Source of the DNA: Candidatus Woesearchaeota archaeon
GTDB taxonomy: Archaea; Nanobdellota; Nanobdellia; Woesearchaeales; GCA-2686295
Assembly: GCA_937912225.1 (NCBI GenBank)
Contig: CALDOJ010000036.1
Coordinates: forward strand, 31,191 to 95,190
Direction: 5' to 3'
DNA: 64,000 nucleotides
Under the pieces are notes generated by a model. That model did no database searches and had not been told where the DNA came from. It saw only the letters and a program-made list of their open reading frames with translations. A program made the translations under genes and the position numbers. Of the stretch, positions 5,421 through 48,156 are shown piece by piece. Positions within the stretch are counted from its first letter, which is position 1. Each line of letters starts with the position of its first letter.

Positions 5421-5462
5421 AAAATGAAAAAATTAATAAATGAATAAACAAAGGTGATACTT

Positions 5463-5831
5463 ATGGCTAAGAAAATTTTACTTGTGGATGACGAACCACA
5501 CATTATTGAACTTGAAAAAGCAATTCTTACACTTGAAGGTTTTGAAATTTTAACTGCTGAAGATGGAGCAACTGCTCTTGAAATATTAAAAACAGAAAAG
5601 CCTGACTTAGTTATTCTTGACATGATGATGCCTGGAATGAGTGGCAGGGAGACTTGTGACTCTATTCGAAAGAATCCTAAGACTAAAGATTTGAAGGTTA
5701 TCTTTGTGACTGTTGCTAAGTTTTCTGAGATGGGTCAAAAAAGTCTTGAAGAACTTGGAGTTTCAGATTATTTGACTAAACCATTTGATAATGATGAGTT
5801 AGTTGCAAGAGTTAAGAAAGCTTTAAAATAA
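5463..5831 (+). CDS. Stand-alone response regulator receiver (CheY-like)
   Basis: KILLVDDEP, phospho-acceptor context LVILDMMMPGMSG, FVTVAK, YLTKPF. The ATG at 5463 follows AAGGTGAT, so the GTG at 5454 called by the ORF track lies inside the SD. Confidence 0.9.
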   Translation: MAKKILLVDDEPHIIELEKAILTLEGFEILTAEDGATALEILKTEKPDLVILDMMMPGMSGRETCDSIRKNPKTKDLKVIFVTVAKFSEMGQKSLEELGVSDYLTKPFDNDELVARVKKALK

Positions 5832-5839
5832 ATCTAAAA

Positions 5840-8800
5840 TTAATTATTTTCTTTAAATCTATTAAATACTGTTAGTTCGTGTTCTCCTTCTGCTCTCTTT
5901 GTTGTTGGAAGTGTAAAATAAAATGTTGAACCTTTGTTTAGCTTACTTTCAACCCACATACTTCCGCCTAATACTTCAATTATTCCTTTTGAAATTGCAA
6001 GTCCTAAACCAGTTCCACCAACTTTTCTAGTATATGAAGAATCTGCTTGGTAGAATCGTTCAAAGATTTTCTTTAAGTTTTTCTTTTCAATTCCTGTTCC
6101 TTCATCTTTAACTGCAAATAATAATTCTTTATCTTGTTTTTTAACTGAGATAATTATTTTAGTGTTAGGTTTGTCAGAATATTTGACAGCATTGTTTACC
6201 AAATTTACAATTACTTGTGATAACCTGCTTTTATCAACAATTGCATCTTGGATTTTAGAATCAACATTCATTTCTAATTCGACCTGTTTTTTAGCGGCCA
6301 TCACATACAATTCATTAACAACATCTTTTACTAATTCTGATAAATTAATTTTTTCAAAAAAGAATTTCATTGTTCCAAGGTCCAGTCTTGATAAATCTAA
6401 AATATCATCAATTAATTGTTTTAATCTATCTGCATCTTTCATTACAATGCTTAAATAATAATCTCGTTGTGTTTTATTTTCTAAAATCTTCTTATTTTGT
6501 AAAAGTGTTGCAAACCCGTGAATTGATGCTAATGGAGTTTTTAATTCGTGAGCGGTAACTGAAATAAACTCGCTTTTGTATTTGTCCATTTTCTTCATTT
6601 CTTTATTTGCAGCATTTAGTTCTTTATTGATTCCAACTAATCTTTTTTCAGATATCTCAAGTTCTTCTTTTGAAAGACTAACATCTTCAAGAATGTTAAG
6701 AACTGCAGTTCTTGTTTTTTCAAGTTCTTCGACTTTGTTATTTAACTCTACAGTTTTATTTTCAACTAAAGTTTCTAGTTCTTCTTCATGTAACTGTAAT
6801 TCTTTCCGAGATTCTTCTAATTCTTTAGTTCTTTCTTTAACAGTTATTTCTAAGTTAGTAGTTATTTTTTGAAGTTCGTTTGTTTTTTCATCAACTTCTT
6901 TTCTAAGAGTGTTTGTTAATAAAAAATTAAAAACTATTCCTATTATTAAAATTGCAAACATAATTCCTGCAGTAGAAGTCCAAATACTATTTATAGTCTG
7001 TTCAACAAAAGAAACTACTTCTGCTTCATCCATTTTAGTTACAATTCCAACATCTAATTCGGGTATATAATTGGTTACAGCAATAACAGGTGTGTTTCGA
7101 TAATCATTAAAATCTAAAAACACATCTTGATTATTTAACAAAGCTTGTGTTATTGGAATTTCAGTATTTTCTTTTGGAATGATATCTTGAGCTTCTGCTT
7201 CTGTTTCAAACCTTCTTTTGGAAAAAAATTCTGCATCTCCATTTCTATTCCTAAATGCCACTAAACTTTCTCCAGTTTCTCCCATACCAATTTCGTTATT
7301 AAATTTTTCAACTAAGACTTCTGTGTTTAAATTTGCAACTAACACTCCTTCATTATAAGGTATTGAAATAGAAAAAAATATTTTTTCTTCAGTCTCAGAA
7401 TAATAAACTGATTTAAAATAAGTTTCAATTTTTCCAAATAGGAATGCCTCCTCAGTTGATTTATCTAAACCAATATTTTGTTCGTTTGAAGAAGCAATTA
7501 CTATTCCGTCAGAATTTAAAATAAATAACTCGTTAAATTCATTGATGTTATTAACAAGCTTTTTTTGTTCTTCGATTGAAAGTTCTTCATCAATTGCAAA
7601 AATTTTAAGTCTATATTCTTGCTCTTTAAGATATTCCTGAATAAACTTTGATTGTAAGTTAGCAATTGTAGATAATTGACTTGCTATTGTTAATGATCGT
7701 TCTTCTTTCATAGACTGAGTAACATTATATGTGTTAAAAAGAAATAATCCTAATATTAATAACAATGAAATACTAAGTAAAATTACAACAGTGTTTTTCT
7801 CAAAATGAATTAGTTTTAATTTATATAAAAAAAATACTATTATTAGAATTATGATACCTACACCTATAAACACAAACATTAACTTAGTTAAGGATAATTC
7901 TTCTGATTTAACTTCTTCCTTGAATTGAGATATGTCCTGAATAACAACAACTGTTCCAACTTTATTTCCTCCAGCATCATAAAGTGCAAAACCACCATCT
8001 ACAAACGTCTTTTCGCCTAATGAAAATTCATGAAACATGCTCCCTTCATCAGATGATAATTTAAAGTGATTCTCATTAAATGAAGCTTCATTAAAAAGCA
8101 AGTTTGTTTTATCTGTAGAATCAATCAAAAGAAAGTCGTCCATATCATAATAATTATTTCTCAGCCCTTTAAGTTCTCTTATAAAAGCCCATTCATGTTC
8201 ATCAATGAAATCTTTTTTAACAACTATTCCATAATCAAAACCTGTTTGTTGTTTCATAGCGTTAATGAACTTATCAATTTCTTGACCGAATTCAACATAA
8301 CCAATTAATTCACCATTATAATAATAAGGATGAACTACTCTTAATGCAAAGGCAGTCTTTCCAAGTTCTATTCCAGCACCCCAAGAATTTGATAATTTAG
8401 ATTGTTCAAATGTGATTCTTGTTATTTCATCACCAAAAATATCTTTATTATGAACTCGTAAAAGATTAGTTCCGTTTAAATTATAAAAATAAAAATGTGT
8501 TATATCATATACTTCCTTGTTTTTATTAAACATTTCAACAACTGAATTATACAATTTATCTCTATCTCCTTCTAAAAAGATTTTTTTATATTCTTCTTGT
8601 TCCATAAAATTAGTCATTAAATTTTTCAAAGTAGTTACATCTTTTTCATTTAAAACATCAAAAACTATTTTTGCGTCTTGAATATTTTTTAAAACTAATT
8701 TTTCAAGAGAGATTTCAGATAATAATTCTTCCTTAGAAGTAAGTGTGATTCCTGATTCATATTCATCCAAGTAAGTAGTTGCTGCAACATGTAATCCAAC

Positions 8801-9310
8801 ACCATCAGCTGTTTTAGCATTAACAAGAACTATATGCATATATTTCTGTTTAATACTTCCATCTGCTTCTTCCCAATCATAAATACCTTCAGCTTCAACC
8901 CCGCCTTCTGTTTTTGACATAATATTCCAAAAACCAGGAAGTTTATCTGCAAGATTATGAAGGTCTAAATTAACTATGCTTGGATTAACGTGAAATCTTG
9001 CAATTAAAGAATTGTAATCAGTTACTGCTGTATAACCAGATTTACCAACTTGTTGAACTGCAATTTCTTGAAAGTAAGAATCATTTTGAAGATCTAAAAC
9101 TGTTTTATCAGGATTTAATGTAATATAAATCTCGATTTGTTTTGCAACATCAATTGCTTTTTGTTTAATAAACAATTCCGCTTGTTTTAAGAATTCGTTA
9201 GTTGAAGAAGATTCATAATCTGCTACTGATGTAACAGTATTACTTTCAGCAACAACTAAAGTTGAAACTAATAAAAACAATACAAAAATTAATTTAAACA
9301 ATTTATTCAT
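5840..9310 (-). CDS. Membrane sensor histidine kinase with two extracytoplasmic sensor regions
   Basis: Signal/TM at the N-terminus, a TM pair near residue 480-530 and a third TM near 790. Long coiled coil with ELEKTRTAVLNILEDV. H-box SVTAHELKTPL, N-box LVNNAVKY, G-boxes VKDEGTGIE and GGTGLGLAISK. Confidence 0.9.
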   Translation of the reverse strand: MNKLFKLIFVLFLLVSTLVVAESNTVTSVADYESSSTNEFLKQAELFIKQKAIDVAKQIEIYITLNPDKTVLDLQNDSYFQEIAVQQVGKSGYTAVTDYNSLIARFHVNPSIVNLDLHNLADKLPGFWNIMSKTEGGVEAEGIYDWEEADGSIKQKYMHIVLVNAKTADGVGLHVAATTYLDEYESGITLTSKEELLSEISLEKLVLKNIQDAKIVFDVLNEKDVTTLKNLMTNFMEQEEYKKIFLEGDRDKLYNSVVEMFNKNKEVYDITHFYFYNLNGTNLLRVHNKDIFGDEITRITFEQSKLSNSWGAGIELGKTAFALRVVHPYYYNGELIGYVEFGQEIDKFINAMKQQTGFDYGIVVKKDFIDEHEWAFIRELKGLRNNYYDMDDFLLIDSTDKTNLLFNEASFNENHFKLSSDEGSMFHEFSLGEKTFVDGGFALYDAGGNKVGTVVVIQDISQFKEEVKSEELSLTKLMFVFIGVGIIILIIVFFLYKLKLIHFEKNTVVILLSISLLLILGLFLFNTYNVTQSMKEERSLTIASQLSTIANLQSKFIQEYLKEQEYRLKIFAIDEELSIEEQKKLVNNINEFNELFILNSDGIVIASSNEQNIGLDKSTEEAFLFGKIETYFKSVYYSETEEKIFFSISIPYNEGVLVANLNTEVLVEKFNNEIGMGETGESLVAFRNRNGDAEFFSKRRFETEAEAQDIIPKENTEIPITQALLNNQDVFLDFNDYRNTPVIAVTNYIPELDVGIVTKMDEAEVVSFVEQTINSIWTSTAGIMFAILIIGIVFNFLLTNTLRKEVDEKTNELQKITTNLEITVKERTKELEESRKELQLHEEELETLVENKTVELNNKVEELEKTRTAVLNILEDVSLSKEELEISEKRLVGINKELNAANKEMKKMDKYKSEFISVTAHELKTPLASIHGFATLLQNKKILENKTQRDYYLSIVMKDADRLKQLIDDILDLSRLDLGTMKFFFEKINLSELVKDVVNELYVMAAKKQVELEMNVDSKIQDAIVDKSRLSQVIVNLVNNAVKYSDKPNTKIIISVKKQDKELLFAVKDEGTGIEKKNLKKIFERFYQADSSYTRKVGGTGLGLAISKGIIEVLGGSMWVESKLNKGSTFYFTLPTTKRAEGEHELTVFNRFKENN

Positions 9311-10584
9311 TTTTTCTTTTCTAATTTTAATTCTAATTCTTTAACTTGTTTTTTTAATTCAACCATTTTCATTTCTCGTCCAACTGTTAAATTACTAAAT
9401 TTTTCTAGTTGTTCAATTTTTATTTTAAGCTCTTTTGTTCGGCTTTCTACTTCTGATTCTAATTCTTTCTCGTGATTTTTAATTTTATTATTTGATGTTT
9501 TTAACTCATCAGACATTTTATTAAATGCGACTGATAATTCTCCAAGTTCGTCTTTTGACTTGACTTGAATTTTATAATTAAGATTTTCTTTTGCGAATTC
9601 TTCAGTTCCTTTAACTATTTCTCCTAAAGGCGAAGTTATTGTTTTTGAAAAAAGGAATGCGAAAATACTTGCAAAAATTGTAATTAATAAACTAACAAAA
9701 ACTGTTGCTTTCATCAAATCATTTACTGGCTGTAATGCTTCTTCTGTATCTATGGCTGCTAACAGACAAATTTCTCGTTCTGGAATCCAAATATGATAAT
9801 CTATCACTTCAATATTTCTATAACCAATATATTTCAAAGAACTTTCTTTTCCGTCTAAGCAATCTTCAACACCTGAATTATAAATTGCGCCTTTAAGAGC
9901 CATGTCGTCTTTAAATCTTGATTCTGTTAACATATAATTAAATTTGTTCACTAAGTATGTTTCTCCTGTGTCACCCATACCAGAACGTTCAGTCAATATT
10001 GAACTAATAACTTTTAGATTAACTCTGCCAACCAATACTCCTTTAACTATTCCATTTTCATCTTTTATTGGTGTTGAAACAGTCATAGAAGGTAAATTTA
10101 ATGATAAATCATAATAAAAAGGTTGAATATAAGATTCTGTTAAACCACGCTTAAAATAAATTTCATTTGATTTAATCTTGCCTTCTTGTTTTTTATCAGT
10201 TGACATATGGGCTATGCCTTTTTCATTTAAGATAAATAATTCAAAAAAATTTTGACTTGGAGAATTTAAAGTTTTTATTAAATAATCTTGAAGTTTATGA
10301 TGAGCAATCATATCATTAGAATTTGAAACTTCATGAAAATTATTCATAGCATAAAATAAATTCAGAAGAGTCTCATCTTGAGATAATTCTTCTAAATGAT
10401 ATTTTTCTTCAATAATAAAACTTTCAACTTGATTGGCTTTTAATACTGCTATACTTTCTAATTGAGATCGGACTCTATCTTCAATAGAAGATTTACCTAT
10501 TATAAAAAAAATTAAACTACTTACAAGTATAATTATTAGAGCTAAACTAATAAACACGCTTATTAATTTTATACTTAGTTTCAA
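9307..10584 (-). CDS. Membrane sensor protein (Cache-like ectodomain + HAMP + coiled coil) with no kinase or other output domain
   Basis: Two TM helices flank a ~270-aa ectodomain. HAMP-like ITSPLGEIVKGTEEFAKENLNYKIQVKSKDELGELSVAFNKMSDEL. Ends in a coiled coil. ATGA overlap with the kinase gene. TTG start after AGAGGT. Confidence 0.7.
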   Translation of the reverse strand: MKLSIKLISVFISLALIIILVSSLIFFIIGKSSIEDRVRSQLESIAVLKANQVESFIIEEKYHLEELSQDETLLNLFYAMNNFHEVSNSNDMIAHHKLQDYLIKTLNSPSQNFFELFILNEKGIAHMSTDKKQEGKIKSNEIYFKRGLTESYIQPFYYDLSLNLPSMTVSTPIKDENGIVKGVLVGRVNLKVISSILTERSGMGDTGETYLVNKFNYMLTESRFKDDMALKGAIYNSGVEDCLDGKESSLKYIGYRNIEVIDYHIWIPEREICLLAAIDTEEALQPVNDLMKATVFVSLLITIFASIFAFLFSKTITSPLGEIVKGTEEFAKENLNYKIQVKSKDELGELSVAFNKMSDELKTSNNKIKNHEKELESEVESRTKELKIKIEQLEKFSNLTVGREMKMVELKKQVKELELKLEKKK

Positions 10585-10643
10585 ATTTTAAGTTCTAACC
10601 TCTTTTTTTAATAGTTCAATACATTCCAATATTTAAATCCGGT

Positions 10644-12548
10644 TCATTCTAAAAACTCAGTTGTAAAAACAGTTTCAATATCAAAAGAGTTTTCAAGTTC
10701 TCCAACAGAATCTAAATCTTCATATAGTTTCTGCCATTTTTCTTTAGTCATAAAACCTATTTTTTGTGATGAATCTGCTTTAAAATATTGAATTGAAGAT
10801 TGAAGCATGTTTTTTTGATGTACAGGGTCTAATCTTGCATCATATTCAAAAACAAATCCTGTTGAATCCTCAGGGTTTTCATAAACATACTCCCATCCTT
10901 TCAAAGTAGCTGATAAAAACTTTCTAACTAATTCCGGATTAGTTTTTATAAGCTCATCAGTTGTAAAGATAACATTATAATAACTATCAAATCCAAAATC
11001 TGAAGGGTACAAAACATTGACTTCATAATTCTCTTCTAAAGCTTCTTGTAATTCATTTATAGAAACTCCAGCAACTAAATCAACATTTTCATCAAATAAA
11101 GATTGCAAACCATATTGTTTAGATACAAAATTAATATTTGAAGAATCAACACCATTATTTTCTAAAAGAATCTTTTTGATGATTGCTTGTGAACCAATAC
11201 TTGCAATAGTTGTTCCTTCTAAATCTTTAAGAGATAAAATATTTTTTTCTTTTAAAGACAAAAACACTGTTGGATTCTTATAATAAACTGCCGCAATCGC
11301 CTTTAGTTTTGCACCAGAACTAATCTTCTTCAATAAATCAATTGGAATAGTAACTCCAAATTGATCATCTCCATTTATAACTCTATCTTCAATTGACGCA
11401 TCATAACCTGCTGAATGCAAATCAACTTTTAATCCTTCAGCACCATAATATCCTAGTTGGTCTGCAGCATAGAAACCTACGAATTGATTTTGATGCAACC
11501 AAGATAATTTTACATTTACTTCTTCTTCTTCTTCTTCTTCAGAATAAATTTTCTCTAAAAATTTAGTTGTATAAACTAATTCAGAACCAATTGGTCTACT
11601 TAATATTCCTTGTTCAAATAAAATTCTTTGAGTACCTTCCCATTCTTTAGATTCCATCCACCCAAGTGGACTGTCACCAGTATGAATTAAAGGAATACTC
11701 TGACTTAACATGTAAGTTTCATGTTCTCTTGTGCTATCAACAGCGTATTTTAAAACAGTTGTAACTGTTTCTTCTTCATTCTCAATAGCGTATTGCCAGC
11801 CTTTCAAAGTAGCTCTTAGAAAATCTTCTACTAATTCAGGATTATTATTAATCATATCATCAGTTGTAAACAATACATCTGCATAAATATTAGCTCCATA
11901 ATCGGCCATTAAAATCGTGTTTACTTCATGACCTGCTTGCATTGCTAAATGTGGTTCGTTAATAATATAACCAGTTGATACATCAGTATCACCAGCTAAT
12001 AATTCAGTCGCATCATAACCAATAGTTACTTCATTAATTTGACTACGATCAATCTTAAGCCTATTCATCATAGATGCATACAAAATTCCGACATTAATAT
12101 CAGTTCCATCACTAGCTCTTTCAATACCAACAGTTTTACCAACAAAATCTTGAGGACTAGTAATTCCGCTAGTTCCTAAAGAGTAAGCAACAACTGGATT
12201 AATTTTATATATTACTGCAATAGCTTTTAGTGGTAGACCTTGTTCTCGAGCTAAAATTAATTCATCAGCACCAGTTATTCCAAATTCGACATCACCTTTA
12301 GCAACAGCAGATATGGTTGGTTCTTCAAATGAAAAAGGCTCTATATTAACATTTAATCCTTCATCAGAATAAAAACTGTTTTCTTTAGCAACATAATTAC
12401 CTGCGAATTGAGATTGATGAAGCCATTTAAGTTTTAAAGTTACATCAGTTAGTTCTTTTTCTTTAAATAAGAAAAAACTAGATAACACTAAAATAGCAAC
12501 TAAAACAATAGCTGAGTTAATTAAAAAGGTTTTTTTTGTATGTTTCAT
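10644..12548 (-). CDS. Tandem-duplicated NMT1/THI5-like (NitT/TauT-type) solute-binding protein, membrane/signal anchored
   Basis: Two homologous halves (LKLKWLHQSQFAGNYVA... and VKLSWLHQNQFVGFYAA...) joined by an E7 linker. N-terminal hydrophobic anchor. Confidence 0.65.
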   Translation of the reverse strand: MKHTKKTFLINSAIVLVAILVLSSFFLFKEKELTDVTLKLKWLHQSQFAGNYVAKENSFYSDEGLNVNIEPFSFEEPTISAVAKGDVEFGITGADELILAREQGLPLKAIAVIYKINPVVAYSLGTSGITSPQDFVGKTVGIERASDGTDINVGILYASMMNRLKIDRSQINEVTIGYDATELLAGDTDVSTGYIINEPHLAMQAGHEVNTILMADYGANIYADVLFTTDDMINNNPELVEDFLRATLKGWQYAIENEEETVTTVLKYAVDSTREHETYMLSQSIPLIHTGDSPLGWMESKEWEGTQRILFEQGILSRPIGSELVYTTKFLEKIYSEEEEEEEVNVKLSWLHQNQFVGFYAADQLGYYGAEGLKVDLHSAGYDASIEDRVINGDDQFGVTIPIDLLKKISSGAKLKAIAAVYYKNPTVFLSLKEKNILSLKDLEGTTIASIGSQAIIKKILLENNGVDSSNINFVSKQYGLQSLFDENVDLVAGVSINELQEALEENYEVNVLYPSDFGFDSYYNVIFTTDELIKTNPELVRKFLSATLKGWEYVYENPEDSTGFVFEYDARLDPVHQKNMLQSSIQYFKADSSQKIGFMTKEKWQKLYEDLDSVGELENSFDIETVFTTEFLE

Positions 12549-12566
12549 TTATTAGCCTCCAGCTCT

Positions 12567-13355
12567 TTAAATCCATTTATTAGTTATTTCTTCTATTTGT
12601 TTTCCCCAAATCATCGTACCTAATACTTGATTAACTTCATTCATCAAAAGATTATTTTCTTTCATTGAAGCTAAGCCATAAAATTCTTGAGTAAAAGGAG
12701 TACCTACTACTTTTAATGAAGGATTATTTTTAACCAATTCTAAACCTGCAATGTAATCTATAATGATTGCACTTAAGTTATCATTCAATAATGCAACTGT
12801 TGCAAGATCATAATCTTCATAAGATAATACTAAAGATTCACCAGCATATTTTACTGCTTCATCATAACTAGTTGTATCCATTTGAACACCAACTTTTTTA
12901 CCAAGTAAATCTTCAGGAGTTAAAACTGATTCATCTTCAGCACTCACAACAATTACTTGACCGGCATTAAAATAAGGGATGGAAAATAACATTTCTTGAG
13001 ATCTTTCATCAGTAATAGTTATTGAAGAAATTGCAAAATCAACTTCTCCAGCTTTCACAGCAACGAATAATTCATCCCAACCATAATTAACAAATTCAAT
13101 TTCTAAATTTAAACGCAAAGCTATTTCTCTTGCAACATCAACGTCTATTCCTGCAAATTCACCATTTTCATCTAAGAACTCCATTGGTTCATAAGGAATA
13201 TTTGTACCAACAATTAACTTTCCTCGTTCTTGTACTTTTGAAAACGAATCATCACTTAATTGTTCATTTAACAATTCATCATTAGTTGATGTACAACTAA
13301 TAGTCATCAAAGACAATATTACTAGTACTAAAAAAAACGCTTGTTTATATTTCAT
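12567..13355 (-). CDS. Family-3 (amino-acid type) solute-binding protein, probable lipoprotein
   Basis: LIVGTNIPYEPMEFLDENGEFAGIDVDVAREIA...VDFAISSITITDERS...FSIPYFNAGQ. Signal ends in MTISCTS. Confidence 0.75.
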   Translation of the reverse strand: MKYKQAFFLVLVILSLMTISCTSTNDELLNEQLSDDSFSKVQERGKLIVGTNIPYEPMEFLDENGEFAGIDVDVAREIALRLNLEIEFVNYGWDELFVAVKAGEVDFAISSITITDERSQEMLFSIPYFNAGQVIVVSAEDESVLTPEDLLGKKVGVQMDTTSYDEAVKYAGESLVLSYEDYDLATVALLNDNLSAIIIDYIAGLELVKNNPSLKVVGTPFTQEFYGLASMKENNLLMNEVNQVLGTMIWGKQIEEITNKWI

Positions 13356-13368
13356 ATTTATTTCACCT

Positions 13369-16300
13369 TCATTGTTTTTTCTTTAATCGTTTAATTTCTT
13401 CTTTTAGTTTGATCATTTGTAATTCTCTATTAATTGCATACGTATGAAATTTTTCAAGTTCTTCAGTTCTTCTCTTCAATGCTTCATCAGATTTTTTTCT
13501 ATGAGTAACATCTCTAAGAGCTCCTGCTATTCCAATAATCTTCCCAGAAGAATTTTTAATAGGTGCTTCATCAATCTCAGCCCAAAATATTTCTCCATTT
13601 TTCTTCTTGAATTCTAAAATATAAGGTTTTTGAATTACTCCTGTCTTTAAAGCTTTCACAGTTAGTTTTAAACCTTCATCATTAATAGGGTTTTTTGTTG
13701 TTAAAGTAGTCCATTTAACCATCATCTCTTCTGGTGTGTAACCAAATACTCTTTTAGAAAGAGGATTCACATATGATAATTTATGATTTGTATCATGAAT
13801 GTAGAACATGTCATCACTATGTTCAATAATAGTTTTATATTTTTTCTCACTAGCTTCTAACAAGTTCTCTGCTTCTTTTTGATCAGTTATATCTCTAAAT
13901 ATTTCCATAATAACTTTTTTACCTTTAAGATTCATACCAACATGATTAATTTCATAAGTTCTATTCCCAGCAACCCCTGTTGTAATAATACTTCTTCGCT
14001 CACCTAATTTAATAGGTTTCTTCAATGGACAATCACCACATTGTTTTTTATTATCCTTATAAAGATTATAACATTTCTTTCCAATTGCTTTTTTTCCAAA
14101 AATGTTTAAGAAAAATTCATTCATGTAAAGAATATTTAAGTTTTCATCAACAATATCCATTCCTTCAGGTAAAGCCTTAAGAATATTTTCTGAAAACTCT
14201 TTTTCTTTTCGAAGTTCTCCTTCCGCAGTCTTTATATTTGTGATATCTGAAAGAACTCCCTCATAACCTTTCGCCACACCATTTTTATTATATACAATTC
14301 TAACACTATCTCGCACCCATTTTATATCTCCAGTCTTAGTTTTAAGTTTATACTCACTAAAAAAGTATTTATCTTTTTTCTTAAGAGCTTTATTTAAAAC
14401 AGGAGTTATACGCGTTACATCATCCTCAAACATTAGACTAACATACGATCTAACTTTGTTATTAATAACATCACTAACAGGAAAACCTGTAACTTCTTTA
14501 AATGCAAAACTTGCAAAAGAAAAAGTCCAATTCATATCACATTTGTAAACAACACCAGGAACAGTGTCTATCATATTTCTAAATTGTTCCTCGCTTTCTT
14601 TTAATTTTTCTTCTGCAAGTTTTTTATCTGTAATATCTTGAGTTGTTCCTATTAATTTAACTACAACTCCTTTCTCTTTTTTAGTTTTGCATCTTGCATT
14701 TACCCACACAATGTTCCCAGAAGGTTGAACTAAACGTATTTCTATATTATATCCAACACCTGTTTTAGTAGTATTCGCAACAGAATCATTAAATAAATTC
14801 CAATCCTTTGGATGAATATATTTCTTATGCTCTTTATAATTAAGTTCTCCTTTTTTTGGATCAATACCAAATATTTTAAATAATTGTTCAGACCAAATAG
14901 GTTGTGCAGTTTTAACATCAAAACTCCAACTTCCAATACTGGCTACTTCTTGTGCTTCCATTAATTGTTCTTCACTTACTATTAATTCTTCTTCTGCTTG
15001 TTTTCTTTCAGTAATATCTCTAATAACACCAACTACTTTAACTGGTTTATTATTCTCATAAATTAATTGTCCAGATTCTTCAGCAAAAATATATTTTCCA
15101 TTCTTAAGTTTAAGTCTGAATTCTGTTGTCGTAACTTTTCCCGTCTTCCAGAGCATTTCAAAATCTTTCATAACAGATTTCAAATCATCAGGATGAACAA
15201 AATTAGACAAAGGTTTTCCAAGAACTTCTTTTACTCTATAACCATATTTACCAATATTATCTGAAACAAAAATAATATTTCCATTAATATCATAACTATA
15301 AATTATGTCTGAGACTTTATTAACAAGAGTTTTGAATTTTTCTTCACTTTCTTTTAACTTTTTCTTTGAAAGTTCTCTGGAAGTAATATCTTGAAAAATA
15401 CAATGTGTTCTTTGAAACACACCATTTTCATCATATTCTGCAGTTCCATTATATTCAACAAGGATATGTTCGCCATTTTTTTGTTTCATAGAAAAGAGAA
15501 TATCACAAGCAGTACCTGTTTTTTTAAAATTAGAAAAATTTGATTTAAAATCATTTAATTTATCAGATGAAACAAACTCTGAAAAATTCTTACCAATAAC
15601 ATCTTGTTTTTTATATCCAAGAATGTTTAACCAAGCAGGATTAACGTCTAATAAATCCCCGTTTGAATCTAAAGATTGATATGGAACTGGAATTTTTTGG
15701 TAAACTGTTCTAAATTTATTCTCGCTTTCTATTAACTTAGTTTCAAAAAGCTTTTTTTCAGTTATGTCTTGAGTTATTCCAATTGCATTTATTGCTTTAC
15801 CTTTTTTATCAAATAATATCTTTGCTTTTTCTTTTACCCACTTTACTTTTCCTTTTACTATAATACGATGTTCAAGATTATAAACTCCAGACTTTAAACC
15901 TTCAGTCCACTTTTTAGCAACATATTCTTTGTCATCAGGATGAATGGTTGCTAAAAAACTTGATAAATTTAGAGAAGCTCCTTGTTTAACTCCAAATATC
16001 TTATAATTTTGTTCAGTCCATTCTAAAATGTCATTAACAATATCTAACTTCCAAGTTCCAATCAAACCAATTTCTTGCGATTTTAATAATTTTGATTCAC
16101 TTTCTTTTAAAGCTTCTTCTGAAAGTTTTTTTTCAGTAATATCAACTGCAGCAGCATAAATATATTTACCGGCATGCGTTGTTTGCCATTCTAAAGTTCT
16201 ATAAGAACCATTCTTATGTTTATATCGATTAACAAAATTAATTATAGAGTCTCCTTTTAGTTGTTTTTCTTTAAGCTCAACAGCTATTCTTTTTAAATCA

Positions 16301-17742
16301 TCAGGATGAGAAAGTTTAGTCCAACCAAGATCTAAAAATTCTTTTTTAGTATAACCCAACATAGATTTACAAGAATTATTAACATTAATTATAGTCCCAT
16401 CAACTTTTGAAATAGTCATTAAAACAGGCGCAGATTCAAAAATATCTTTTAATTTTTCTTCACTTTCTCTCAAATCTTCTTCTGCTTTCTTACGTTCTGT
16501 TGTTATAGTAAAATAAACTGATATGCCTTCTTTAGAAGGGTAAACTCTAACATCATACCAATTAATATAAGGTTTCTTTCCAAAAAAGATTTCAAAAGTA
16601 ACTAATTTATTATTTTTTAAAGCATAAGTATATTTTTCTTCAAATATACTTCCCTTAGCTTCTTTAAACACTTCATTAAATATTTGTTTGCCTAAAATAT
16701 CTTTGCTCTTTTTATTTAAAAGTTCTTCAGATTTTTTATTAAAATAAGTAAATCTAAGGTCTTGATTTAGTGTGAAAAATGCATCACTAATGCTTTCCAC
16801 AGTTGTTCTAAGTTTCTCTTCACTTTCAATTAATTTTTTTCCTATTCTATTTTTTCTCAGAAAATTGTTGAAAAGACCACTTATTGTTGAAATTTCGTCC
16901 TTAACTTTTTTATCTATTTTCGTCTCAGATTCAACAATATCCAAACCTATAAATCCTTTTAATTCATTGTTCTCTGTTAAAGGTATGGTGATTAAAGATT
17001 TGATTTTTTGTAATTGAAAATGTTTTTTTTCTAATTTTGCTTCAGAAGGTAATTTTGCTACACTTTCAACAACAAAAGGTTTTAGTTTTAGTATTTGTTT
17101 ATTAAACCAAGGTAATTCTTTTTTTAAATTAATATTTTTTAAATTATTTATTTCTGGCTTCACTCCTTTTCTACACCATTCATGAGTATTTGACATAAAC
17201 TTTCCTGAAACAGAAAAAATATAACTTCTATCTGCATGAAAATAATTTCCAATAGTTTCTAAAGCTTTATTTATAACATCATCAACTAATTCTTTATCAT
17301 AATCAATAAAAGACATAGAAAGTTCATTTAAGATATTCTCAAACAACAATTTTTGCTTTAAAAGTTTTTCTGCGTTTTTTTGTTCAGTAATATCTCTAAG
17401 AATTGTTTGTAAAGCAATTACTTTACCATTTTTCTTTATTGGTCGACTTTTATACTCCATAAAAAAGTTTCCTTTCGGAGCAATTATTTCAACAGAACCA
17501 TGAGTTGGTTTACCTTTAGCTAAGTCAAGCATTTCTTTTGTAAGCTGAAGAACATGTTTTTTTACAACCAATTTATACGTGGACTCACCAATTAAATCTG
17601 ATTCTTTAAAGCCATATTTATTAACTGCTTTATTTGCATAAAGAACTCTACCTTTTAGATCTATAAATAGAATTATATCTGTAAAGTTATCAAACAGGTC
17701 TGATTTAAAATTACTAGTACTAATCTCTGGTTTTTTACCCAT
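13369..17742 (-). CDS. Giant cytoplasmic multi-PAS/PAC (+GAF-like) sensor protein without output domain
   Basis: Ten recurring PAC-end linkers D[IV]T-x-[KR]K-x-EE-L-x-SE counted by eye. A GAF-like segment near residues 150-290. One PAS carries C-x10-C-x2-C. The protein ends in a short coiled coil. Confidence 0.8.
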   Translation of the reverse strand: MGKKPEISTSNFKSDLFDNFTDIILFIDLKGRVLYANKAVNKYGFKESDLIGESTYKLVVKKHVLQLTKEMLDLAKGKPTHGSVEIIAPKGNFFMEYKSRPIKKNGKVIALQTILRDITEQKNAEKLLKQKLLFENILNELSMSFIDYDKELVDDVINKALETIGNYFHADRSYIFSVSGKFMSNTHEWCRKGVKPEINNLKNINLKKELPWFNKQILKLKPFVVESVAKLPSEAKLEKKHFQLQKIKSLITIPLTENNELKGFIGLDIVESETKIDKKVKDEISTISGLFNNFLRKNRIGKKLIESEEKLRTTVESISDAFFTLNQDLRFTYFNKKSEELLNKKSKDILGKQIFNEVFKEAKGSIFEEKYTYALKNNKLVTFEIFFGKKPYINWYDVRVYPSKEGISVYFTITTERKKAEEDLRESEEKLKDIFESAPVLMTISKVDGTIINVNNSCKSMLGYTKKEFLDLGWTKLSHPDDLKRIAVELKEKQLKGDSIINFVNRYKHKNGSYRTLEWQTTHAGKYIYAAAVDITEKKLSEEALKESESKLLKSQEIGLIGTWKLDIVNDILEWTEQNYKIFGVKQGASLNLSSFLATIHPDDKEYVAKKWTEGLKSGVYNLEHRIIVKGKVKWVKEKAKILFDKKGKAINAIGITQDITEKKLFETKLIESENKFRTVYQKIPVPYQSLDSNGDLLDVNPAWLNILGYKKQDVIGKNFSEFVSSDKLNDFKSNFSNFKKTGTACDILFSMKQKNGEHILVEYNGTAEYDENGVFQRTHCIFQDITSRELSKKKLKESEEKFKTLVNKVSDIIYSYDINGNIIFVSDNIGKYGYRVKEVLGKPLSNFVHPDDLKSVMKDFEMLWKTGKVTTTEFRLKLKNGKYIFAEESGQLIYENNKPVKVVGVIRDITERKQAEEELIVSEEQLMEAQEVASIGSWSFDVKTAQPIWSEQLFKIFGIDPKKGELNYKEHKKYIHPKDWNLFNDSVANTTKTGVGYNIEIRLVQPSGNIVWVNARCKTKKEKGVVVKLIGTTQDITDKKLAEEKLKESEEQFRNMIDTVPGVVYKCDMNWTFSFASFAFKEVTGFPVSDVINNKVRSYVSLMFEDDVTRITPVLNKALKKKDKYFFSEYKLKTKTGDIKWVRDSVRIVYNKNGVAKGYEGVLSDITNIKTAEGELRKEKEFSENILKALPEGMDIVDENLNILYMNEFFLNIFGKKAIGKKCYNLYKDNKKQCGDCPLKKPIKLGERRSIITTGVAGNRTYEINHVGMNLKGKKVIMEIFRDITDQKEAENLLEASEKKYKTIIEHSDDMFYIHDTNHKLSYVNPLSKRVFGYTPEEMMVKWTTLTTKNPINDEGLKLTVKALKTGVIQKPYILEFKKKNGEIFWAEIDEAPIKNSSGKIIGIAGALRDVTHRKKSDEALKRRTEELEKFHTYAINRELQMIKLKEEIKRLKKKQ

Positions 17743-45011: not shown

Positions 45012-45416
45012 TTATTGTTGTTTAAGCTTTGGTAATGGGATTGGTGCTGGTAGGCCCAGATCTTTACTTAAGATTAAAGCTTGAATATTGCATTTGTTAA
45101 GAACATTGTTCATAACTTGGTTTGTTGCTTCTTTAGGAATAGATTTGTTCTTTTTCCAAGAATCAAGAACTTCTTTAGCTGTTTTTTCATCAGATAACAA
45201 TACTAATTCGCCATTTAATTCTATATTTCCAATTCCAGGTTCATATTTTGAAGTGTATTGAAAAGTAAACTTCATTGCTTTTTGGTCACCACCAATTGCT
45301 AATTTTGCTTCTTTAACATCTTTAATAGTAACATTATTACTAATGCTAACTTTACCTGTAACAGGAAGTTTTTTTTCAATCATCATTTTTGTGAAATTTA
45401 ATCCAACTATTGCCAT
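45012..45416 (-). CDS. Hypothetical protein, possibly SecB-like fold
   Basis: The order of beta-rich N-half and C-terminal helix (VMNNVLNKCNIQALILSKDLGLPAPIPLP) loosely parallels SecB. Weak by-eye call. Confidence 0.25.
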   Translation of the reverse strand: MAIVGLNFTKMMIEKKLPVTGKVSISNNVTIKDVKEAKLAIGGDQKAMKFTFQYTSKYEPGIGNIELNGELVLLSDEKTAKEVLDSWKKNKSIPKEATNQVMNNVLNKCNIQALILSKDLGLPAPIPLPKLKQQ

Positions 45417-45502
45417 TTTTAAAATCCTCCGTGTTTGAATAACACCTTCTTCTCGTTATTAAGTTTTGGTTTATAAAAGTTTTGAATTTACAAGAATAAA
45501 AA

Positions 45503-45787
45503 GAAATATTTATATATAAAACCCGCTATCCTGAAGGTTATGATTACAAAAAGTGATTATGCGTGGCAATAGTAAACCTTTTTTCTTAGATAGTAATATA
45601 ATATTAACTGGTGATTATGCGTGGCATTTACAAATTCATAACTTATTTTAAAACTTCTAATGGCTTCTGGCGTTTGTTCTTCTAATTAAAAATTCTTAGA
45701 TTAAAAAATAAAATGAAATTTCGGAGGCAAACAAAAAATTGTAAGATTTTTGAGTCTCCTAAAATAAAATTTTCGGAGGAATATAAA
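45503..45787 (+). promoter_or_regulatory. trpB promoter plus ~250-nt leader with overlapping Trp-codon mini-ORFs
   Basis: GAAATATTTATATA (45503-45516) is identical to the trpS promoter core, and 23 nt later comes ATG 45540. The perfect 16-nt repeat GTGATTATGCGTGGCA lies at 45553-45568 and 45611-45626. Mini-ORFs are 45540-45572, 45559-45651 and 45617-45685. Confidence 0.4.
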
Positions 45788-46972
45788 ATGAATATAAAAA
45801 ATAATATACCAAATAAAAAAGGATTTTTCGGAGAGTACGGAGGTCAATTTGTACCAGAAGGATTAAAGATTGCAATGAATAATCTTACAAAAGATTATTT
45901 AAAAATAAAAAAAGACAAAACTTTCAAAAAAGAATTTGTTGAATTAATGAATAACTATGTGGGCAGACCATCAGCACTTTATTTTGCTAGAAATCTAAGC
46001 AAAAAATATGGTTGTAAGATCTACTTTAAAAGAGAAGATTTAAACCACACAGGAGCTCATAAAATTAACAACACTATAGGACAAGCTTTGCTTGCAAAAA
46101 GAATTGGCATAAAAAAAATTATTGCTGAAACTGGAGCAGGTCAACATGGAGTTGCAACAGCAACTGCAGCTGCATTGATGGGCTTAGAATGTGAAATTTT
46201 TATGGGAGAAATTGATGCAAAAAAACAGATGATGAATATTTATCGTATGCAATTGCTTGGAGCTAAAGTCAATGTTGTTAAAAAAGGTGGCAGAACCTTA
46301 AAAGATGCAGTTGATGCAGCACTTGAATACTATATGCACCATCCAGAAGTATTTTATCTTCTTGGTTCTGTTGTAGGTCCACACCCTTATCCAATGATGG
46401 TTCGTGATTTTCAATCAATTATTGGAAAAGAAGCAAAGAAACAAATAAAAAAGCAAGAAGGAAGATTACCCGACTACCTTGTTGCTTGTGTTGGTGGCGG
46501 AAGTAATGCAATTGGCTTGTTTTATGACTTTATACCTAACAAACAAGTTAAGTTAATAGGTGTAGAGCCTGCTGGTAAAGGACTAAAAACAGGTAAACAT
46601 GCAGCAACTATGACTCTTGGAAAACCAGGTGTTTTACATGGATTTTATAGTTATCTTTTACAAGATAAAGATGGTAATCCATTGCCTGTTTATTCTATAG
46701 CTTCAGGACTCGATTATCCTGGAGTTGGACCTGAACAAAGCTTTTTGAAAGATATTAAAAGAGCAGAATTTAAACATGTAACTGATGCTGAAGCTTTAGC
46801 AGCGTTTCATGAAACTTCTAGAATTGAAGGAATAATTCCTGCTTTAGAAACAAGCCATGCCCTTGCATATTCTTTCAAACTTGCAAAGAAGCTTAGAAAA
46901 GATCAAATTATTATTGTGAACTTTTCAGGTCGAGGAGACAAAGATGTAGAGTTTGTTGCAAGCCTGCATTAA
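45788..46972 (+). CDS. trpB: Tryptophan synthase beta chain (TrpB1-type), stand-alone
   Basis: [43 protein letters not shown] 45788 follows CGGAGGAAT. The called start at 45713 adds 25 non-conserved residues. Confidence 0.9.
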
Positions 46973-47003
46973 TTTTTTTTTTTTATTTTCAGAGGATAAA
47001 AAA

Positions 47004-47017
47004 GAAATATTTATATA
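47004..47017 (+). promoter_or_regulatory. trpS promoter core (TATA), probably giving a leaderless mRNA
   Basis: GAAATATTTATATA followed by exactly 23 nt and then the trpS ATG at 47041. No SD. Confidence 0.45.
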
Positions 47018-47040
47018 ACTAAAGAAGCAAACAAAATAAG

Positions 47041-48156
47041 ATGGATAAAACAATAATTACTCCTTGGGAAGTTAAAGGTAATGTTGATTATAATAAATTA
47101 ATAAGTGAATTTGGAGTTTCTAAAATTGATGAATCCTTAATGAAACAAATAGAAAAGCATGCAGGTGAAATTCATCATTTTCTTAGAAGAAATATTTTTT
47201 TTGCTCATAGAGATTTAAAGTTCTTTTTTGATGAATACGAGAAAGGTAATGCTTTTATGTACACTGGTTGTGGACCTTCAGGACCAATTCATATGGGACA
47301 TGCAACTGTTTGGATGTTTACTAAATGGCTTCAAGATAAACTAGGACTTGATCTTTGGTTTCAATTCACAGATGATGAAAAATTTCTTTTTAAAGATAAA
47401 TCAATGGATGAAATACAAAAATGGCTTTATGAAAATATGTTAGATGTTATTGCTTTAGGTTTTGATCCAAAAAAAACTCATTTTCTAATTGATACAAAAC
47501 ATGCAGGAATAATGTATCCTGAAGCAATCAAAGTTGCTAAAAAGATTACTTTTTCAACTGTAAAATCTGCATTTGGGTTTACTAACGAAAATAATCTTGG
47601 AACTATATTTTTTACTTCAATGCAAGCAGTTCCAGCATTTTTACCTAATATAATTGCGGGTAAAAAAATGGCTTGTTTAATCCCTCATGCAATAGACCAA
47701 GACCCACATTTTAGAGTTACAAGAGATGTCCTTCCAAAATTAGGACATTACAAACCAGCTTCTATTCAATCAATGTTTCTTCCGGGTTTAGGAGGTATGA
47801 AAGAAGATGGAAAACTTTCTTCTTCTACTGGTGAAGCGATTTATTTAACAGATGATAAAAAAACTGTTCGGAAAAAAATAATGAAATATGCTTTCTCTGG
47901 TGGTCAAGCAACACTTGAAGAACATAGAAAAAAAGGAGGTAACCCTGATATTGATGTTAGTTACCAATGGCTTCGATTCTTCGAAGAAGATGATAATAAA
48001 TTAAAAAAGATTTATGAAGATTATAAATCTGGAAAATTATTATCTGGAGAACTTAAACAAATTCTTGTTGATAAAATAAATGCTTTCTTAAAACAACATC
48101 AGAAGAATCGAGAAAAAGCTAAAGACAAACTCGATCAATTTATCTTTAAACAATAA
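47041..48156 (+). CDS. trpS: Tryptophanyl-tRNA synthetase, archaeal/eukaryal type
   Basis: GCGPSGPIHMGH (HIGH-type), KLSSS (KMSKS-type), overall length 371 aa. Confidence 0.9.
   Translation: MDKTIITPWEVKGNVDYNKLISEFGVSKIDESLMKQIEKHAGEIHHFLRRNIFFAHRDLKFFFDEYEKGNAFMYTGCGPSGPIHMGHATVWMFTKWLQDKLGLDLWFQFTDDEKFLFKDKSMDEIQKWLYENMLDVIALGFDPKKTHFLIDTKHAGIMYPEAIKVAKKITFSTVKSAFGFTNENNLGTIFFTSMQAVPAFLPNIIAGKKMACLIPHAIDQDPHFRVTRDVLPKLGHYKPASIQSMFLPGLGGMKEDGKLSSSTGEAIYLTDDKKTVRKKIMKYAFSGGQATLEEHRKKGGNPDIDVSYQWLRFFEEDDNKLKKIYEDYKSGKLLSGELKQILVDKINAFLKQHQKNREKAKDKLDQFIFKQ

Follow-up and report, generated by a model that had tools for sequence, protein, structure and literature searches.

Does a lone gene for the beta subunit of tryptophan synthase, sitting directly upstream of the gene for tryptophanyl-tRNA synthetase (TrpRS), supply an archaeon with one half of a complex or with an enzyme that acts on its own? 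We address this question for the trpB–trpS pair of a Candidatus Woesearchaeota archaeon, located in a 64,000-nucleotide stretch of its genome (GenBank assembly GCA_937912225.1, contig CALDOJ010000036.1, positions 31,191 to 95,190 of the forward strand) that we refer to as the window (Table 1). A preliminary description of this DNA had noted the adjacency of the two genes, which are indeed separated by only 68 bp, and had proposed that salvaged indole and serine feed straight into tRNA charging. Judging from comparisons with related loci, we consider it likely that trpB encodes a stand-alone enzyme for indole salvage, embedded in a trpB–trpS supply module with a leader containing Trp codons. 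TrpB would be a catalytically complete TrpB1-type enzyme working alone as a beta-beta dimer, which would condense free indole and L-serine to L-tryptophan with neither a TrpA partner nor an indole tunnel. On its own, the gene pair is a modest surprise; what raises its value is the signature at the TrpA interface together with the leader.

Profile searches identify both genes. TrpB, whose translation contains HTGAHKINN and ETGAGQHG, scores 586.9 bits against the trpB profile TIGR00263 (cutoff 392.45) and stays below the cutoffs of the TrpB2 profiles (TIGR01415, 186 vs 518.85 bits; PRK12391, 191.9 vs 366 bits). The earlier label "TrpB1-type" therefore stands as far as the hidden Markov model (HMM) is concerned, but it hides a distinct subgroup that is altered at the TrpA interface. 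The trpS product scores 508.3 bits against the archaeal TrpRS profile NF008927 (cutoff 478), carries the class I motifs HMGH and KLSSS, and has TrpRS enzymes as its closest solved structures (3hv0, 3i05, 3jxe). Contigs with an identical TrpB sequence number 16, up to 95 kb long, and 18 contigs read from ENA, NCBI, JGI and Logan carry an identical TrpRS. The window has a G+C content of ~29% and encodes the archaeal markers GatD/GatE, CDP-archaeol synthase, topoisomerase VI A and B, a DnaG-type primase, a RIO kinase and a KH-domain protein. The trpB open reading frame (ORF) offers an alternative in-frame ATG at 45713; position 45788 is the better start because GGAGG lies 9–13 nt upstream of it, homologues have their N-termini at this point, and P0001, the database protein, is 394 amino acids long. 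Shine–Dalgarno (SD)-like sequences are found 9–14 nt 5' of the trpB ATG in 11 of 12 loci. In agreement with the preliminary description, scanning all window ORFs of 90 amino acids or more against Pfam revealed no trpA, trpC, trpD, trpE, trpF or trpG. Searching the six-frame translation of the window with a TrpA HMM, built from ten trpA genes downstream of trpB, gave no match even at E ≤ 10; the positive control, the archaeal TrpA of locus L061, was recovered at 2e-54.

We collected 172 loci with TrpB relatives from one-genome-per-species (GTDB) and metagenome collections and aligned the TrpBs; residue numbers follow E. coli TrpB, a numbering validated by the position of K87, E109, D305 and S377 on invariant columns and by more than 15 identities matching PMC8187860. 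The window TrpB keeps every catalytic and pyridoxal phosphate (PLP)-binding residue. K87, E109, T110, Q114, H115, the GGGSN loop (232–236), D305, E350 and S377 are invariant in 13 orphan TrpBs from DPANN archaea, at whose loci the TrpA HMM detected no trpA in the fetched flanks. Fifteen positions show 90% or more conservation among 121 trpA-linked TrpBs but are replaced in these orphans (20, 105, 141, 171, 175, 176, 177, 243, 257, 294, 298, 301, 302, 370 and 392). Among the known contacts of the beta subunit with the alpha subunit are I20, N171, R175 and Q288/G292 (PMC8187860), and the replaced positions 294–302 adjoin the 288–292 contact region described there. Where the trpA-linked enzymes carry T20 (96%), N171 (98%), R175 (96%), D176 (93%) and W177 (100%), the window TrpB has G20, D171, E175, Y176 and Y177, so that the residues expected at position 20 and in helix 6 for TrpA contact and allosteric signalling are missing. 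It also has a one-residue deletion after helix 6 and, like its subgroup, R141K.

The link between residue 171 and trpA held throughout the collection. TrpBs with trpA in the flank have N171 in 120 of 122 cases and S171 in the remaining two, never D171, and trpA was absent from the fetched flanks of each of the 39 TrpBs carrying D or E at this position. The metagenome loci, whose TrpBs are at most 64% identical to that of the window among the matches listed, provided an independent replication. Of the best 120 database hits, 110 were readable at residue 171, and all 110 have D171. Across ~170 loci, the interface replacements thus track perfectly with the absence of a neighbouring trpA.

Phylogenetic placement, a check suggested in the preliminary description, points the same way. 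The nearest TrpB relatives (67–81% identity) are labelled Woesearchaeota, Nanoarchaeota, DPANN group or Nanobdellati archaeon, followed at ~65% identity by proteins of the candidate phyla radiation (CPR)/Patescibacteria. In a neighbor-joining tree, the DPANN TrpBs form a clade (bootstrap 86/100) that is sister to a bacterial group including Kerfeldbacteria and Peregrinibacteria, with 98/100 for the joint clade of DPANN and CPR-type sequences. The window TrpB accordingly groups with orphans rather than with TrpA-requiring subunits, and it is separate from the trpA-linked archaeal TrpB of Methanosarcinales (L061). Monophyly of all D171 TrpBs was tried as well and found no support (0/50 bootstraps).

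The neighbourhood of the gene is conserved in its own right. In nine of the thirteen DPANN lineages compared, whose TrpBs are 63–81% identical, trpS lies at most three genes downstream of trpB (Table 1), while the upstream contexts of trpB vary (CDC48, topoisomerase VI or a PF01877 protein). Two types of TrpRS, only 28–34% identical to each other, occupy this position: the eukaryote/Pyrococcus-like type in the window and L090, and a second archaeal type in the seven other lineages. The comparison with L005, the closest relative of the window, is informative here. Its TrpB is 81% identical, whereas its TrpRS (11248–12333), of the other archaeal subfamily, is only 33% identical, and the genes flanking trpS are ~70–81% identical; the synthetase has therefore been replaced in place with the pairing unbroken. 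trpB probably belongs to a conserved "tryptophan supply" neighbourhood with TrpRS, to which relatives add tRNA-Trp and the PLP-homeostasis protein YggS. With TrpB and TrpRS side by side, the cell could therefore convert scavenged indole into charged Trp-tRNA. A side observation concerns TrpRS itself: a homologous N-terminal extension of ~220 amino acids is fused to enzymes of both types (L090, 9319–11064; L175, 6940–8700), and the L175 protein carries a B3_4 domain according to precomputed Pfam annotation. This domain is also present in PheRS beta. We speculate that the extension might serve in editing or tRNA binding, which would matter if substituted indoles give rise to Trp analogues.

Bacterial members of the group show comparable wiring. 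Four orphan D171 trpBs, in metagenome-assembled genomes (MAGs) labelled Eubacteriales, Clostridiales, Acholeplasmataceae and Izemoplasmatales, directly follow a T-box, and both T-boxes that were read (L010 and L011) have a UGG (Trp) specifier. Among the matches listed from the metagenome scan, the nearest TrpB relative (L093) is likewise bacterial and is followed by a bacterial-type trpS; a second, divergent trpS paralogue lies upstream of it and is divergently transcribed. Linkage to trpS, tRNA-Trp and yggS, together with the T-boxes, associates the TrpB subgroup with the supply of Trp-tRNA in archaea and bacteria alike. The proposal that salvage feeds tRNA charging thus gains support from intact catalytic residues, replaced TrpA contacts, grouping with orphans, gene linkage and the bacterial T-boxes.

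Several characterized enzymes invite comparison. With canonical TrpB1 enzymes (Salmonella/E. coli, PfTrpB), the window TrpB shares the fold, the chemistry and the catalytic and PLP-binding residues, at ~55–63% identity to trpA-linked TrpBs and with 495 bits to PfTrpB. It differs from them in N171D, R175E, D176Y, W177Y, T/I20G, R141K and the one-residue deletion, and in having no trpA nearby. Identity to solved TrpB structures is ~68%, the best PDB match being the reconstructed TrpB of the last bacterial common ancestor (LBCA; 5ey5, 539 bits). LBCA TrpB and plTrpB of Pelodictyon luteolum, likewise TrpB1 enzymes, are active without TrpA (Kinateder et al. 2025, PMC11917138); these enzymes still have or bind TrpA, and their independence has been mapped to six residues (PMC11917138). 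TrpB2 (TIGR01415), a paralogue frequently found as a stand-alone protein, is a proposed indole scavenger dependent on O-phosphoserine (cited in PMC11917138), but it is a different subfamily, and the window TrpB, 186 bits against a cutoff of 519, keeps the TrpB1 active-site Asp. Indole salvage by TrpB is known from the trpBA genes of genital Chlamydia trachomatis and from Bifidobacterium (PMC8376405, PMC11085991), where a reduced or partial pathway likewise rescues Trp from exogenous indole. Chlamydia, however, keeps a catalytically impaired TrpA as obligatory allosteric partner, whereas the window locus shows no sign of TrpA and an altered interface. trpB is among the last-step genes inferred for ancestral Micrarchaeota nodes (PMC12892359), and trpA and trpB frequencies have been reported in a groundwater CPR survey. 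Our literature searches found only gene-inventory mentions for DPANN or Patescibacteria and trpB, and none joining DPANN, tryptophan synthase and indole, or Woesearchaeota and the tryptophan synthase beta subunit. They also returned no description of the interface-altered subgroup, of its perfect anticorrelation with trpA, or of its linkage to trpS, tRNA-Trp and yggS.

How would such a gene be regulated? The promoter element of trpB lies ~270 nt upstream of the gene, and the leader contains a 16-nt sequence, GTGATTATGCGTGGCA, that is repeated exactly and in direct orientation at 45553 and 45611. The two motif copies give rise to three overlapping short ORFs with one UGG each, at 45564, 45622 and 45668 (Table 1); L176 has the same two-copy layout of the first motif, and in both loci the copies are 58–61 nt apart. 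A TATA-like box starts 27–31 nt before the ATG of the window mini-ORF, and 28–33 nt before it in 12 of 14 leaders. Archaeal transcripts are expected to start at this latter distance from their TATA box, and the mini-ORF ATG should lie at the predicted transcript start. Counterparts of the mini-ORF in relatives read MTRKSDYQWH, MQKSDYAWHR, MASKSDCRWR and MKGDCRWL, each followed by a stop, among others. Asp and Trp are invariant apart from one copy with Gly for Asp, the distance from ATG to GAT is a multiple of three in 14 of 14 copies, so that length differences keep the frame, and C directly follows the first UGG in all 16 copies, with U-GGC invariant. A second frame, overlapping the mini-ORF and shifted by +1, ends in a C-terminal motif, S-N-G-[FY]-W-[RHQ] (SNGFWR in the window), that is conserved in 13 lineages, its Gly codon varying synonymously. 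In all 16 copies, this frame stays open from one Trp codon to the next and both others are interrupted, against 3.85 of 16 expected for an open frame after shuffling, the copies being related and not fully independent trials. In L085, the second peptide is a single ORF with its ATG at the predicted transcript start. Trp is the only invariant amino acid common to both leader ORFs.

We infer that the leader is probably a translated, ribosome-based sensor of Trp-tRNA availability; trpB expression would then probably be tied to charged tRNA through 5' short ORFs with invariant UGG codons. Similar logic is known from trpL, from Trp T-boxes and from mycobacterial leaderless Cys-rich short ORFs (bioRxiv 10.1101/834739), in which a 5' short ORF carries codons for the product amino acid, and T-boxes with a UGG specifier precede bacterial orphans of the same TrpB group. 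Unlike these bacterial leaders, the one described here belongs to an archaeon with a TATA-type promoter, has one Trp codon per ORF in two overlapping frames, and shows neither a conserved terminator/antiterminator structure nor an Rfam match. We found no archaeal precedent for such a leader-peptide Trp sensor in the literature searched. Two known architectures were considered and rejected for the window leader. For a riboswitch or T-box (RF00230), no match was obtained at the gathering threshold in the window, nor at E ≤ 1 over 45400–47100. T-box-like pairing of UGGC with the 3' end of the tRNA fails on the tRNA-Trp of L175, whose discriminator A73, read from the sequence, needs UGGU.

The same conservation might alternatively reflect a repressor operator just past the transcription start, or a small protein of unrelated role, with no sensing of Trp. 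Conservation of the GTGATT-N5-TGGC and TGG-N4-TGGC blocks exceeds what coding needs, as in the C that always follows UGG; the two copies in the window and L176 have a spacing at which operators are often paired; and conserved RNA structure and a universal terminator are both lacking. Against an operator speak the constant TATA-to-ATG spacing, the frame-preserving indels in all 14 copies, the fact that just one of the three frames is open, in every one of the 16 copies, the synonymous variation of the Gly codon, the single ATG-started peptide of L085 at its predicted transcript start, and Trp as the sole invariant amino acid of both ORFs upstream of a Trp-making gene. On balance, we regard an operator or unrelated small protein as possible but doubtful. 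A specific form of the Trp sensor, based on frameshifting, appears unlikely to us. In this scheme, the mini-ORF (M-x-x-K-S-D-Y-x-W-x-stop) would normally terminate right after UGG; with Trp-tRNA scarce, the ribosome would pause at UGG, slip +1 onto the invariant GGC and read the conserved second frame toward trpB, so that the leader RNA would be shielded from termination or ribosomes would be delivered to the trpB start. The two serial sites in the window and L176 would steepen the response. The invariant C after the first UGG fits such a slip, as do three of 16 copies in which the +1 frame has no start codon of its own and an obvious translation-initiation context found at the mini-ORF only. 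The remaining 13 copies, however, have a GTG or TTG available, and L085 needs no shift.

Several observations weigh against the overall picture of a stand-alone enzyme in a supply module with a sensing leader. Of the six residues (Res6) that confer independence on LBCA TrpB and plTrpB (E36, E42, T53, S187, A279, M280), the window TrpB has T, V, S, S, F and Y, matching only S187. At the activating positions F274 and T292 of PfTrpB it carries L and V, not the evolved S, and we reject the known stand-alone markers as the cause of independence; any TrpA independence here would rest on residues other than Res6. The nine cases of trpB–trpS linkage are not nine independent events, because the DPANN lineages are related and the synteny is partly inherited. 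The search for trp genes covered 64 kb of this genome and 5–10 kb around each relative. RNAalifold found no conserved pairs and no terminator/antiterminator hairpins in the leaders, the window leader folding no better than shuffled sequences (minimum free energy z-score 0.17), and an oligo-T terminator as general output of the leader was rejected, since runs of at least five T between leader and trpB occur in 5 of 12 loci. Finally, trpB and trpS, although adjacent, are probably separate transcripts from identical core promoters and not one transcript, because a T12 run and a separate element resembling a transcription factor B recognition element (BRE) and TATA box lie in the 68-bp gap. This implies that trpS would have its own, nearly leaderless transcript. 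The exact 18-mer AAAAGAAATATTTATATA has two copies in the whole window, before the trpB leader and before trpS, and all other near-matches carry three mismatches.

Two other accounts of the enzyme have to be weighed against indole salvage. It could be an ordinary beta subunit that sits next to trpS by chance, with TrpA, and perhaps the rest of the pathway, encoded at another place in the genome. Split arrangements of trpA and trpB do exist: TrpBs with N171/R175 but no adjacent trpA occur at two GTDB and seven metagenome loci, plTrpB is separated from its own trpA by nine genes (PMC11917138), and some DPANN, such as certain Micrarchaeota, keep broad amino-acid biosynthesis (PMC12892359). Yet such a subunit would be expected to retain N171, R175 and W177, which are 96–100% conserved in the 121 trpA-linked TrpBs and all replaced here, and no trpA was found near any of ~39 D171-type loci. 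The grouping with orphans instead of the trpA-linked archaeal TrpB of L061, and a linkage to trpS, tRNA-Trp and yggS but not to trp genes, leave this account quite unlikely. In our reading, the rest of the pathway would be absent from the genome. The enzyme might also have given up Trp synthesis for another PLP-dependent beta-replacement or elimination, such as serine deamination or reactions with another nucleophile or with O-phosphoserine. Catalytic promiscuity is characteristic of TrpB scaffolds, and O-phosphoserine is a TrpB2 substrate (cited in PMC11917138). The subgroup also has R141K and, near the active-site lid, changes at 294–302, which would suit a changed reaction. Nevertheless, E109 and D305, which we take to be the residues defining indole and serine chemistry, and the whole PLP site are invariant. 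The active-site Asp is a hallmark of TrpB1 (cited in PMC11917138), and the score against the TrpB2 model is far under its cutoff. The wiring is, moreover, specific to Trp: bacterial relatives have UGG T-boxes, the cluster holds tRNA-Trp and TrpRS, and the leader carries Trp codons. We consider a changed reaction very unlikely.

Table 1 Coordinates and arrangement of features in the window and in related loci (L numbers)
Feature	Locus	Coordinates	Strand	Remarks
trpB, orphan TrpB1-type tryptophan synthase beta subunit, 394 aa	window	45788..46972	+	TIGR00263, homologue starts
trpS, tryptophan--tRNA ligase, eukaryote/Pyrococcus-like archaeal type, 371 aa	window	47041..48156	+	NF008927
BRE/TATA-like element AAAAGAAATATTTATATA of trpB leader	window	45499..45516	+	read from sequence; putative promoter
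Mini-ORF MITKSDYAWQ-stop, Trp codon 45564-45566	window	45540..45572	+	conserved upstream of trpB in relatives
Leader ORF-a (M)IMRGNSKPFFLDSNIILTGDYAWHLQIHNLF-stop, +1 relative to mini-ORF	window	45553..45651	+	begins with repeat copy 1 (45553-45568)
Leader ORF-b (M)IMRGIYKFITYFKTSNGFWRLFF-stop, Trp codon 45668-45670	window	45611..45685	+	begins with repeat copy 2 (45611-45626)
SD-like GGAGG of trpB	window	45775..45779	+	read from sequence
T12 run immediately 3' of trpB stop codon, like archaeal oligo-T terminator	window	46973..46984	+	read from sequence; putative terminator
Second exact copy of 18-nt BRE/TATA-like element, 24 nt 5' of trpS ATG	window	47000..47017	+	read from sequence
trpS directly downstream of trpB	window, L005, L087, L091, L176			
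trpS after yggS	L088, L174			
trpS after methyltransferase gene, gene of no assigned function and yggS	L090			
trpS after HDIG-domain gene	L175			
trpB without trpS nearby	L006, L085, L092, L173			
tRNA-Trp(CCA) between trpB and trpS	L091	7185-7261		
tRNA-Trp(CCA) between leader and trpB	L175	4885-4960		after T10 run following leader ORF
yggS between trpB and trpS	L088	7179-7820		
yggS between trpB and trpS	L174	6229-6873		
yggS between trpB and trpS	L090	8669-9322		
pdxS and pdxT directly downstream of orphan trpB	L015	11214-12804		Peregrinibacteria MAG
T-box directly upstream of orphan D171 trpB	L008	9684-9921		
T-box directly upstream of orphan D171 trpB	L010	4093-4331		
T-box directly upstream of orphan D171 trpB	L011	9633-9859		
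T-box directly upstream of orphan D171 trpB	L070	9635-9862		
Orphan trpB with bacterial-type trpS 25 nt downstream	L093	3601-7220		

A few further features of the region deserve mention. That one and the same 18-nt element precedes trpS and the leader of trpB might be a sign of co-regulation, or no more than the result of a strong promoter consensus; in L005 the two elements are not identical. The succession of GGAGG (45725), CTCC (45756) and the SD GGAGG of trpB (45775) could allow masking and unmasking of the SD sequence, and a 21-nt imperfect repeat is present at 45716 and 45768; neither is conserved in relatives, as far as compared. Divergent from the trpB leader, a conserved protein of 132–134 amino acids is encoded in the window (45012–45416, minus strand), L005, L087 and L176, with no Pfam or NCBIfam match. 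At a distance from the pair (5454–17742), a sensory block encodes a 1457-aa multi-PAS protein, a sensor kinase with Cache, HisKA and HATPase domains, a Cache-HAMP protein, a receiver domain, and NMT1/THI5-like and SBP_bac_3 binding proteins, a density that stands out in a supposedly reduced genome.

In conclusion, the combination of D171, loss of R175 and W177, and K141 separates partner-free from TrpA-dependent TrpBs and is perfectly predictive over ~170 loci. This signature could improve the metabolic reconstruction of DPANN archaea, of CPR bacteria and of Mollicutes-related bacteria (Acholeplasmataceae and Izemoplasmatales MAGs), and the subgroup points to natural stand-alone TrpBs for biocatalysis. 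With the leader, Archaea gain a candidate, open to testing, for amino-acid sensing coupled to translation; should the frameshift scheme be true, it would represent ribosome-mediated sensing by a mechanism unlike bacterial attenuation. Taken together, the findings suggest that indole is a cross-fed currency of ultra-small symbionts, which keep TrpB, TrpRS, tRNA-Trp and PLP maintenance as one module.

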